Positions 1,190 to 58,512 of a stretch of DNA of 60,244 nt are shown in pieces. Every line of letters starts with the position of its first letter. Positions within the stretch are counted from its first letter, which is position 1. Under the pieces are notes generated by a model. That model did not search any database. It was not told the origin of the DNA and was given only the letters and a program-made list of their open reading frames with translations. The stretch is from Negaprion brevirostris (taxonomy: Eukaryota), in NCBI GenBank assembly GCA_030324005.1, contig JARDVH010000001.1:92569456-92629699 (forward strand). The letters are read 5' to 3'. The translations under genes were made by a program, and so were the position numbers.

Positions 1190-2400
1190 CGAACCACAGA
1201 AAAGTTACAACACAGAAAGAGATCATTCAGCCCATTGTGTCTGTACTGGCCAAAACAAGAGAGGAGCTAGCTGCTCACTCCAATCCCATTTTCAAGCACC
1301 TTCTCTGTAACTTGCAGCTTACAGCGCTTCAGATGGAGATCCAGGTATCTTTTCAATCAGTTCAGCATTCCTGCCTCAACCACCAATTCAGGTGGTGAAT
1401 TCCAAATGCCCATCACCCTCCGGGTGAAAAAGTTTTTCGTCACGTCCTCTTTAATCTTTCTAACAATCACCTTAAACCTATGCCCCCTAGTAACTGGCTC
1501 CTCAGCTAGTGGGAAACATCTTTCCTGTCCATCCTTTCTAGGCCTTCAGAATTTTGTACCCCTCAGTCAAGTCACCTCCTTAGCCTCTTCTGTTTTAGGG
1601 AAAACAATCCTTGCCTATCCAATCTTTCCTCTTGGCTGCCATTTTCAAGCACCAGTAACATTCTTGTTAACCTCCTCTCAGCTCTCTCCAGAGCAATTAT
1701 GTCCTTCCTACAATGTAGACCAGAACTTAGAACAATATTTCAGCTGCTCAATCTTTGTCCTTTTCCACAACTATGCTAAATTTAACTGTGTTATGGCCAC
1801 GATCCCTAAAATAGTCCCCTACTGTTACTTCATCCACTTACTCAGTTTTGTTTTGTAAGACTAAACCTAGAACTGCACCCCCTCTCATTGGCTTATGTGC
1901 TAGCTCAAAAAGTTCTCTTCAATGCAGTTCAAGAATCGTGTGTCCTCTGTGCCCTTCACACTGTTCATATCTCAATTTATATTAGGAAAGTTGAAGTTCC
2001 CAACTATTACTGCTTGATAGCTTTTGCTTACATATTTGCTGTGTTAATTCCTTCTCACTATTCGAGGGTCTACAGTACACTTCTAGATGTGTGGCTGCAC
2101 CTTTTTTATTTCCAACTTCAACTTATGTGGCTTCATTTGATGCTTCATTCAGTATATCATTCTGTCTTACAGTTGTAATTGATTCTTTAACCAGTAATGC
2201 TAAACACTCACCTTCCTCTTCACCCTGCCTGAAAACTCTGAACCCAGGGACGTTGAGCTGCCATTTTTGATCCTCTTTAAGCCACATTTCCATCACAGTG
2301 ATGATATCACGCTGTCATGTATCTATCTGTGCCCTCAACTCATTGATTTTGTTTGCTATACTCCTCATATTTACACATATATATTTTAACACTGCTAAAT
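1190..2400 (-). mobile_element. Degenerate CR1-type LINE (3' end plus endonuclease-region remnant)
   Basis: CR1-type 3' tail at ~1195-1235. gaccagaacttagaacaata at ~1718 is a degenerate EYCVQFWS motif on the minus strand. attaggaaagttgaagttccc at ~1981 reads GNFNFPN, the GDFNFP motif. Confidence 0.7.
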
Positions 2401-2442
2401 TCCTACACTGAACATGTGCTTCTTCTGTATTTCAGAGTCACT

Positions 2443-2569
2443 GACCACAATCTTACCACTGTTCACACCCCATCCTGCCACAATGAATGGAGGAGCTTTC
2501 ACTGGCTGCCAAAGTCTCCAAGCCCGCTGCAGCAGGAGCATGGTGTGAACGGCAGGTAAGATCATGCCC
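2443..2569. mobile_element. Short MITE (PIF/Harbinger-like)
   Basis: Imperfect ~27-bp terminal inverted repeats: acaatcttaccactgttcacacc ... ggtgtgaacggcaggtaagatcatgccc. Confidence 0.55.
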
Positions 2570-2649
2570 ACAACTTTCTATTTCCAGTTCTCGAATTTGC
2601 CCTCAGGTTCACCCCCCCTCGACCCCACACCCCCTCCCCACTCCATTCC

Positions 2650-3260
2650 TGCCAATCTAGTTTAAACCCTCATCAATAGCACGAGCAAAGATACTCATCC
2701 CAGTCCTGTTCAGGTGTCGACCAGCCGGCTCACCTTCCCCAGAACTGGTCCCAATGCTTAGGAAATCTGATCTCTCCCTCTTAACCCAGCTTTCCACCCT
2801 TGCAGCCACATGTTTAATTGTTTACTTCTCCCATTTCTATATTCATTAGCATGTGGGACTGGGAGTAATCCTGAGGTTACTGCTTTAGATACCCTGCTTT
2901 TCACTCCCTTTCCGAACTCCAAAAAATCTTCTTTCAGGACCTTGTCTCCTTTCTTACCCACGTCATTGACACCAACGTGGACCATGACCTCTGGCTGATC
3001 ACCTTACCCCAAAATAATGTCCTGTAACCGCTCTGCGACATCCTTGACCCTGGCATCAGACAGGCAACATACCATTCTGTAATCACATCTAGGACCACAG
3101 AAATGCCTGCCTTTCTCCAACTAATGAATTCTGGCCTATGGTGTGATCACTACCGAAACTGGAAGCACAATTTTGTGCAGCTGGTAATCCTTCCTGCACA
3201 TGTGTCATCTAGGAAACTGGAAGTGTCCAAGACTTCCCACATACAACAGGACACGTATGA
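2650..3260 (-). mobile_element. CR1 LINE ORF1 remnant (SGNH esterase-like domain)
   Basis: ORF 2758-2985, VHVGVNDVGKK...KSRVSKAVTSGLLPVP...LNMWLQGW, carries the HVGxND and SGLLPVP motifs typical of CR1 ORF1. Confidence 0.8.
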
Positions 3261-49583: not shown

Positions 49584-51267
49584 ATAGGTAGTTCTGCTGC
49601 ATCCCACTTGTTGTATGAAGGAATTTCAATTATCTATTATTGAAATTCATGTGATTTGAGGACAGCCATCAGAGTTTAAGATATTACAAGCCTGCAGGCA
49701 TGTGACAATCTAAAGTTTGCACCAAATTTGCACATCATGACCCAAAGAAAGTAGTGATTTCTAATATTTTAAAATTCTTTTCATATATTTTCTACTCAGG
49801 AATGCCAAGGAAGAATTTATAAATTATTGATTAAGAAGTAATTATTTTGATGACAATTTTTAATAATAAATGCACAATTTATGTTTATGTCTGCATGTGA
49901 GTATGTCTGCATTTTTTTTTTACATTCACACCCATTTGTGTTCCTTACATGTATGCCTGTCTGTGTCTCTTATTGCATAGATTCTGTAGATGAGTGCCTG
50001 TACATACATGTGTATAATGGAATCCAAGCAATTCACTTGAGCCACACATTTGAGTGTACAGCAGACATCAGAGTATATACCAGCAATATTAAAATGACAA
50101 CTATACAATACTTCTTGAAGACAAATAGTTTGTAAAGTCTTGCTGAATTACCATAAATTAATTTCAGCAACAAGAAGTTCGGTGGTAGAATTGATTTCAT
50201 ACTTCTATTGAGATATGATGAAAAGCTAAGGACTATTTGAAAAACATGCCAGGTTAGCAGATTTTCCAACCAATTTATGCAAAAGAAGCTTTCTAACAAT
50301 GCCAGAGGTCTGTGCCATTACAAAATAATAGTTATATTGTATAAGGAAATTGATTGATCAAACCTATTTTGTTTAAATGCTTGTTCTCAACATTTTGTGG
50401 GATTGTAATATTACAGTTGAAGCAGATATGTCCAAATATATTCTTGGCTTTGCTGTTGTACCATAAATCTACAAAATGCTTTGACTGAGGTGAGCAAAAA
50501 AAATCTAGTTGAGGTGCATTTTTATCCTTTTACACGACTGCAGTATTTTATTGCAAGTGCCGTGTATTGATTTAACTTTTGATTTGATGATTTTATAATG
50601 TAAGCCATTGTGTGTTATTTAATACATGCCAATAGCCTTTTTGACCCCGATAACTTAAAAAAACTTTCTTGCAATCGCTAAAAAATGTCCATAAATCTTG
50701 CAGTAGCTCAGCATAGGTAGTTCTGCTGCTTCCCACTTGCCATATGAAGGAATTCCAATTATCTACATTTGAAATTCATGTGATTCAAGGACAGCCATCA
50801 GAGTTTAAGATATTACAAGCCTGCAGGCATATGACAATCTAAAGTTTGCACCAACTTTGCACATCATGACTCAAAGAAAGTAATGGTTTCTAATATTTTA
50901 AAATTCTTTTCATACATTTTCTACTCAGGAATGCCAAGGAAGAATTTATAGGTTATTGGTTAAGAAATAATTATTTTGATGAAAATTTTTAATAATAAAT
51001 GCACAATTTGTGTTTATGTCTGCATGTGAATATGTCTGCATGTTTTTTTACATTCACACCCATTTGTGTTCCTTGCATGCATGCCTGTCTGTGTCTCTTA
51101 CATGGAGATGCCAATGTTGGACTGGGATAAACACAGTAAGAAATCACACAACACCAGATTAAAGTCCTGTTAAAGTCCTGTTAGACTTTAACCTGGTGTT
51201 GTGAGACTTCTTACTGTGTGTCTTTTACTGCATAGACTCCGTAGATGAGTACCTGTACATACACGTG
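49584..51267 (+). repeat. Local direct duplication: copy 1 at 49584-50013, copy 2 at 50713-51267
   Basis: About 430 bp colinear with scattered substitutions. Copy 2 carries an extra insert at 51101-51216. Confidence 0.92.
51101..51216. mobile_element. Internally deleted copy of the 34757-34950 inverted-repeat element, with ~11-bp TSD
   Basis: cacagtaagaaatcacacaacaccagattaaagtc ... gactttaacctggtgttgtgagacttcttactg, flanked by tgtgtctctta (51090-51100) and tgtgtctttta (51217-51227). Confidence 0.8.
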
Positions 51268-56875: not shown

Positions 56876-57158
56876 TGGTTAAGATCAAGTGTAGTTTTGG
56901 CATCCTGCACTTGGTTGAAGTCATGAGGTTACATTAAGGCTTCATTCAAAGCAATTTTTTAAAAATGGCATCAAGGTCTTTTGGCTAAGATGCAAATGAG
57001 ATCAAGCTGAGGAGAAGGTACAATGTCTCCTCCAGTTAGCTTGGATCAGCCCAAGGCAGGAAGTGGTGAGCCTGTCTTGTCAGCTTGGATCTGGAATGTC
57101 TCACTTGTGGAGACATTGAATTGGACTTTGATTGGATTGAATTGGATATAAAAAAAAA
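56876..57158 (+). mobile_element. U2-snRNA-fragment-headed, A-tailed short retroelement (unclassified)
   Basis: 56876-56895 matches U2 nt 18-37 (19/20) and 56975-56991 matches U2 nt 11-27 (16/17). A hairpin-rich body follows, then ttgaattgga-type repeats and an A-run. Confidence 0.6.
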
Positions 57159-58134: not shown

Positions 58135-58512
58135 ATGGGGTGGCCCAGTGATTAGCACTGCTGCCTCACTGTGCCAGGGACCAGGATTCAATTCAGCCTT
58201 AGGTAGTTAGTTATCTGTGTGGAGTTTGTACGTTCTCCCCGTGTCCATGTAAGTTTCTTTCCAGTGCTCCAGTTTTGTCCCACAGTCCAAAGATGCACAG
58301 GGTAAGGTGAATTGGTCATGCTAAATTGCCCCTTAGTGTCCCAAGATGTGTAGGATAGAGGGATAGGCCATGGCAAATGCTTGGGGCTAGGGGGATTGGG
58401 CAGAGGGGGATGGGGGGGTGGGTGTTGACCTTGGTCTCTTGCTCTTTCAGAAAGTCGGTATGGACTCAATGATCCAAATCGCCTCCTTCTGTGGGAGTTC
58501 TATGGTTCTGTG
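58135..58512 (+). mobile_element. HE1-like V-SINE (full length, longer tail variant)
   Basis: ggtggcccagtgattagcactgctgcctcac...tctgtgtggagtttgtacgttctcccc...gctaaattgccccttagtgtc...gcctccttctgtgggagttctatggttctgtga. Confidence 0.85.

Follow-up and report, generated by a model that had tools for sequence, protein, structure and literature searches.

We describe a SINEU-like family in the genome of the shark Negaprion brevirostris. It is an approximately 310-nt non-autonomous family headed by the 5' end of U2 snRNA, and we put at about two in three the probability that it is copied by a U2-headed Tx1/Keno-like LINE and, when its copies lie inside U2 genes, is transcribed by RNA polymerase II (Pol II) from U2 promoters. 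We infer both the promoter use and the mobilization by the LINE from the genome sequence. The window, the whole 60,244-nt stretch of DNA that was analyzed, contains one copy of the family. U2 positions are numbered by L031, the genome's best U2 gene (188 bits). The parts of the window copy are as follows:

56876..57158, plus strand: whole element, a 5'-truncated subfamily A copy corresponding to consensus positions 18-309 of the ~310-nt U2-headed retroposon
56876..56895, plus strand: U2 head remnant, U2 nt 18-37, one mismatch to the U2 gene L031
56902..56916, plus strand: inverted copy of U2 nt 25-39; its predicted pairing with the head would cover the branch-point recognition sequence
56917..56967, plus strand: linker containing an internal T-run (alignment) and a short hairpin (fold)
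56968..56993, plus strand: second U2 piece, an extended stem-loop I; U2 nt 11-27 in the window copy, 4/7-27 in subfamily B
56999..57047, plus strand: hairpin module 1; AGATCAAGC / GCTTGGATC form the outer stem, which encloses an inner stem
57048..57091, plus strand: hairpin module 2, which duplicates module 1 except for a different inner stem; the first 10 nt of module 2 are missing in the window copy
57098..57114, plus strand: short terminal hairpin (fold)
57116..57158, plus strand: tail of GAATTG/GATTG repeats, TATAAA, and an A-run (sequence)

The window copy is 88.5% identical to the consensus of subfamily A and 82.2% identical to that of subfamily B. It lacks U2 nt 1-17, has a 10-nt internal deletion, is flanked by no detectable target duplication, and is dead. 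The copy is too decayed for an Rfam match to U2 at E ≤ 1, while two better-kept family copies matched U2 at E values of 8e−6 and 3e−5. All of the motifs named in a preliminary description of this DNA were found in place: U2 nt 18-37 and 11-27 (the latter at 56975-56991) with one mismatch each, AGATCAAG at 56999-57006, and A9 at 57150-57158. In contrast, the spacer of about 80 nt that had been called unrelated opens with the inverted copy of U2 nt 25-39. An octamer at 56990-56997 begins in the 3' arm of the stem of the second U2 piece, which is homologous to the head of a sister family, family C. The T-run of the linker would stop Pol III.

In a genome search with 56876..57158, 40 of 2,603 candidates were scored and yielded 44 matches, most of which start at the U2 piece and end at the A-run. 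A 28-nt pattern of the head-body junction had 533 exact matches versus none for the reversed control. Corrected by the 6.9% divergence measured outside the pattern, this corresponds to an estimated 2,000 to 3,200 head-bearing copies, which excludes truncated copies and assembly gaps. All 30 of 30 aligned copies have the same end-to-end layout; the element is one fixed unit and not a set of stacked insertions. Among 79 distinct near-full copies, a sample biased to the best matches, 40 belong to subfamily A, 36 to subfamily B, and 3 are unclassified, with divergences from their own consensus of 7.2% (A) and 8.6% (B). Subfamily A, the window's, is nevertheless minor, since only 3 of the first 100 position-ordered matches belong to it. 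The U2 head is identical to L031 over nt 1-37 in A and nt 1-40 in B, and in 47 of 80 near-full copies the 5' end falls within U2 nt 1-6.

The family is dispersed and A-tailed and shows target duplications. Duplications of at least 10 nt, most of them starting with A, surround 18 of 80 copies versus 2, 2, and 0 in shuffled pairings. A second same-strand copy was present in 8 of 52 loci, in one of which (L069) the duplication lies between and after the tandem copies. Nearly all copies are located outside U2 genes, and 0 of 30 position-ordered copies were bordered by U2 nt 38 onward where the 3' end was readable. These results uphold the view in the preliminary description that this is no plain U2 pseudogene but a multicopy non-autonomous retroelement with a U2 head. 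A picture of the two U2 pieces as modules inserted repeatedly into each other is not supported, since the 310 nt move together.

No ribozyme or other known RNA besides U2 was found in the body by Rfam, and two copies had no match to tRNA, 5S, or 7SL up to E = 10. Internal T-runs are seen in the family alignment. A Mariner-like common target was sought in the 300-nt flanks of 52 loci, and none was dominant. The body was also found in contigs of four runs (4 of the 16 listed) from four organisms and four studies, with 92, 43, 38, and 2,332 records; one run is possibly the source sample, and since these are assembled contigs, three of them guessed to be RNA, they give no evidence on transcription. 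Two candidate features were rejected. GGCT as part of the 5' end was seen only in copies picked by a query containing it, a selection bias, and was absent in 9 of 9 position-ordered full-head copies; a likeness to an Sm site near consensus 97-104 lacks the final G.

Full-length copies begin at U2 nt 1, and the head-body junction varies in a graded series, with B (26 + 10 copies) at one end, A (10 copies) at the other, and intermediates between them. The break at U2 nt 37 is therefore derived, and the series places the ancestral junction at nt 40, to which the U2 match extends in the commoner subfamily B. A stop at nt 37, as described earlier, thus applies to A but not to B, and with an ancestral junction at nt 40 and no U2 nt 38 onward beside the 30 position-ordered copies where the 3' end was readable, its reading as the scar of a target site is not supported.

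In the B consensus, a short loop after the head is followed by the inverted U2 nt 25-39, which forms an arm of 15 pairs (10 Watson-Crick and 5 G·U) without a mismatch; the folds predict a 12-bp pairing of head and arm in the window copy. At one of the five G·U positions, the pair is Watson-Crick in 27 copies and wobble in 15. No departure from a perfect palindrome disrupts pairing in the RNA, a pattern that suggests selection at the RNA level. This pairing is predicted to mask the branch-point sequence. 3' of the arm, the fold continues with the extended stem-loop I of U2 and then two modules that share an outer stem but differ in their inner stems; a small hairpin and the tail complete it. 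Folding z scores were −5.3 for the A consensus, −6.4 for the B consensus, −4.3 for one copy, and −2.6 for the window copy; the antisense strands also fold well (z of −4.3 to −5.0). At the place of TATAAA in the tail, AATAAA is found in 16 of 36 subfamily B copies and in 0 of 40 subfamily A copies. A second fold-back case in this genome is L190, a LINE 5' end in which a U2 piece is followed by its own inverted copy.

Family C (25 loci examined, L253-L277, of 2,966 candidates) is about 225 nt long; its U2 head extends to about nt 31, it has a single module and a long 3' hairpin, and its tail is longer. It matches the 3' two-thirds of subfamily B, and its single module matches modules 1 and 2 at 78% and 75%. 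Subfamily B is likely a C-like unit with a doubled module, a shortened tail, and a new U2-headed 5' part.

Two types of U2 gene were found. The L031 type has an octamer variant at −279. The second type, 84% identical to L031 and with no octamer within 300 nt upstream, forms an array of 492-bp units, 3 of which are assembled (L036-L038, C157:37354999-37356174). Related array units elsewhere are interrupted by LINE and SINE. Element heads or full copies lie directly behind the upstream DNA of both types. The array upstream DNA is followed by a LINE 5' end in two cases, by a truncated LINE piece in two, and by an element head in one (L060), where U2 nt 1-37 comes between this DNA and the head; the L060 locus is double-headed and cut by the contig end. 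In L286, upstream DNA 74/92 identical to that of L031 is followed by U2 nt 1-40 and 14 nt of body, 54 nt in all, before the sequence passes into a LINE fragment. Furthermore, the dispersed full copy L102 carries 43 nt of array spacer, and the B copy L092 ends on U2 nt 38-109. These U2-linked copies bear out the earlier suggestion that the element is able to insert at the U2 37/38 site. An intact promoter followed by one head, a whole body, and the U2 3' part was not found among the 32 of 32 array-flank candidates and 4 of 4 L031-promoter candidates scored, in an assembly that is gapped at these repeats.

Element tails joined to U2 nt 38-47 gave 6 matches versus 1 in the reversed control. Five of the six are dispersed B copies in which a second A-run follows, and the sixth is unrelated. 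In these five copies, U2 nt 47 is 21 to 25 nt after AATAAA. Such an arrangement would be expected if the polyadenylated transcript of a U2 gene with an insertion had been copied. L282 has U2 nt 13-49 before the head, U2 nt 38-47 and A9 behind the tail, and a short duplication on the outside, as expected of a retrocopy made from an interrupted U2 gene. L090 (family C) has the same kind of end, and one family C copy ends on U2 nt 38-53 plus an A-run. The U2-tailed daughters all belong to subfamily B or family C, and no U2-linked copy of subfamily A was found. They are few (five exact matches and L136) compared to thousands of copies, which points to some U2-resident sources and not to all copies having come from them.

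Other U2-like sequences were noted in the assembly. Three top Rfam U2 matches (L032 on C2094, L033 on C54082, and L034 on C154 next to an N gap) carry one additional A in front of the branch-point sequence, share about 81% identity with L031, and are possibly DNA of another eukaryote. Many dispersed U2 retrocopies (L035, L039-L050, L056) retain about 35 to 40 nt past the mature 3' end, as if copied from precursor RNA.

An A-run followed by U2 nt 38-52 was matched six times (control, 0): by three LINE tails, one bare tail, the B copy L092, and the C copy L090. Junctions at U2 nt 38/39, the site used by Keno, occur at 3' ends of the LINE (L091, L093, and L094), the U2-headed family, and family C; the A at nt 38 is indistinguishable from the tail. 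The ORF1 of the LINE encodes ZCCHC3-type RNA-binding domains and zinc knuckles (Pfam), and ORF2 begins with an APE endonuclease (tblastn to APE-bearing homologues) and has a reverse transcriptase (RT) domain (Pfam). We take the LINE to belong to the Tx1 clade on the basis of this architecture rather than a tree. Named Keno elements are absent among the 120 listed homologues of the LINE protein, the closest named one among those listed being from a ray (61%). No intact LINE copy was found in 17 regions examined, all of which are gapped or broken. The LINE is dispersed (2,775 first-look candidates genome-wide); of 30 LINE 3' ends, only that of the query is located in U2, and specific insertion into U2 genes was not found among these ends.

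A U2 piece is located just upstream of 21 of 29 LINE 5' ends versus 1 of 117 controls; of the 8 ends without one, 4 had <80 nt of upstream sequence and one has U2 pieces further up. In L222 and L223, the U2 head and the LINE lie within one outer duplication; the LINE carries the U2 5' piece along to new sites. The U2-headed element was present in 7 of 58 LINE loci versus 0 of 74 control loci (P = 0.0026), and element and LINE are several times joined end to end; the reciprocal check was weak, with a LINE 3' end in 2 of 59 element loci. The family is likely mobilized by this APE-type Tx1/Keno-like LINE. The preliminary description had proposed a link to Keno or Utopia, of which the Keno side is supported, through a Keno-like LINE tied to the family; the partner found is not a Utopia element, as the LINE has an APE. 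A LINE with the same 3' tail, which it had also envisaged, did not materialize: the likeness is limited to the terminal 9 to 14 nt in 11 of 79 tails (GAATAAAG).

Three further arrangements were seen at LINE loci. L094:90-152 (minus strand) has U2 nt 1-37, a 12-nt T/A tail, U2 nt 38-57, and a truncated LINE, and is an insertion reduced to its tail. The LINE 5' ends in L205, L187, and L190 have up to four stacked U2 pieces. L222:3682-3954 has a piece of U2 nt 17-43 inside the LINE, before its last 240 nt.

The sequence relationships suggest that source copies reside inside U2 genes and are transcribed by Pol II. At a U2-resident locus, transcription would begin at U2 +1 and proceed through the body, and the RNA would be polyadenylated downstream of AATAAA, in some cases 10 to 19 nt into the U2 sequence that follows, which the daughters would then carry. 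The LINE proteins would reverse transcribe this RNA mostly into A-rich sites elsewhere, and rare returns into U2 genes would renew the source copies. Since the inverted arm is predicted to hide the branch-point sequence, the RNA would not act as a toxic half-U2. A more elaborate version is doubtful when taken whole: a SINE parasitic on U2 genes whose sources are renewed via the Keno-like LINE, with transcription from U2 promoters and polyadenylation, an arm kept by G·U pairing that masks the branch-point sequence, and a LINE that recognizes the U2 5' head and not the 3' tail.

According to the main text of Kojima 2015 (PMC4494074), U2 5' extensions can also come from template jumping. It is conceivable, if unlikely, that the copies stem from read-through from chance host or LINE promoters, that their heads were gained by template jumps onto U2 snRNA, and that insertions into U2 genes are dead ends. 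Jumps of this kind do occur in this genome, as indicated by U2 pieces that are stacked and vary in length at the 5' ends of the LINE (35, 41, 48, 52, and 57 nt; four in L205) and by extra U2 pieces before element heads (L075, L102, L103, L113, L282). L102 and L113 also carry DNA from before U2 +1, which means that the RNA of each began elsewhere, and most copies have no trace of a U2 gene. However, the junction of head and body is fixed and has changed step by step along with the body, from which it follows that the heads were inherited from masters, and the daughters with a tail, U2 nt 38-47, and a second A-run show that U2-resident copies are productive rather than dead ends.

The body had no blastn match to the 5' or 3' parts of the LINE in the loci examined, which makes it very unlikely that the family is a deletion derivative of the Tx1/Keno LINE, that is, a non-autonomous LINE instead of a SINE with its own body. 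The two do share the U2 head and, in the 11 tails mentioned above, the terminal GAATAAAG. A hairpin in the LINE 5' untranslated region is also similar to the modules' outer stem (20 of 29 LINE ends versus 0 of 689 background windows); this likeness counts as a single observation, because the 14-nt motif was picked after viewing both and the 29 ends are one family. Highly improbable is a snRNA-type promoter of the element's own, an octamer plus a motif like a proximal sequence element (PSE) in the 3' half that drives the next tandem copy. A perfect octamer does occur at consensus position 131, about 180 nt before the 3' end, where the genome's U1 genes have theirs at −196 to −206 (4 of 15 examined), the best PSE-profile match is about 50 nt before the 3' end, and tandem copies exist in the 8 loci. 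But half of the octamer is a hairpin arm, family C is equally widespread without it, the tandem pairs are explained by insertion into A-tails (as in the L069 duplications), and 20 to 45% of shuffles score as high as the PSE match. The PSE test is itself weak, since the profile, built from 5 U1 genes, picked out no U2 promoter either.

Transcription from U2 promoters and copying by the LINE, the reading we favor, can be compared with known systems. The main text of Kojima 2015 (PMC4494074) reports snRNA-headed SINEs only in crocodilians and leaves SINEU transcription open, as the U1 and U2 promoters are outside the RNA. By the features described there, and not by body sequence, the shark family resembles SINEU-1, -2, and -3: it has a U2-derived head, a length of <500 nt, a poly(A) tail, internal T-runs, subfamilies formed by 5' addition and partial duplication, and tandem copies around a target duplication. 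Like SINEU with Tx1-Mar, it has a likely partner in a U2-headed Tx1 LINE and no clear shared 3' body (PMC4494074). Its ~310-nt A-tailed, high-copy unit with internal oligo-T and, in two copies, no match to tRNA, 5S, or 7SL, its descent from masters (a fixed junction and two subfamilies with intermediates), and its recurrent 5' snRNA additions (the family C head being the second U2 piece) place it in the same class. Unlike SINEU as described in PMC4494074, in which target preference for Mariner-N4 is a feature of SINEU-1, the shark family shows no single transposon target in its flanks, its copies and the LINE still insert at the U2 37/38 site, its daughters carry U2-gene sequence, and a fold-back arm lies over the branch-point sequence.

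Keno is described as a U2-specific Tx1-clade element with an APE endonuclease (PMC4494074, PMC4640811). The shark LINE shares with it a Tx1-type ORF1, APE and RT in ORF2, and a 3' junction at U2 nt 38/39, but is mostly dispersed and takes a U2 5' piece to new sites. Utopia uses the same U2 insertion site, and the 3' flanks of Utopia and Keno begin at U2 nt 39, but Utopia has a restriction-like endonuclease in place of the APE (PMC4640811). The proposed use of a host-gene promoter is as in the cotranscription of R2-type elements (PMC4494074), whereas the shark family is a non-coding passenger with a fixed body and an A-tail. It also differs from R2 in that Rfam found no ribozyme. U2 5' fragments are also present in tailless U2 retropseudogenes, from which the fixed body and A-tail distinguish the shark family.

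A term search of PMC5499810, on elephant shark and shark SINEs, gave no match to U2 snRNA, snRNA, SINEU, or Tx1, and no snRNA-headed SINE in cartilaginous fish is found among the papers listed, which exclude subscription papers, Repbase Reports, and Dfam. The family may already be named in Repbase or Dfam. Together, the U2-tailed daughters and the heads behind U2 upstream DNA provide genomic evidence on the transcription of snRNA-headed SINEs. The common head and site tie a SINEU-like class to the U2-targeting Keno lineage, which suggests that this class may arise wherever that lineage loosens its targeting.

Two other sequences in the window were noted. Positions 58137-58490 resemble a tRNA-headed shark SINE, presumably of the HE1 type. 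Positions 51133-51216 form a long imperfect palindrome with weak matches to miRNA families (E values of 0.17 to 0.3, far below cutoffs), and because a similar sequence recurs in other loci, it is probably a repeat.
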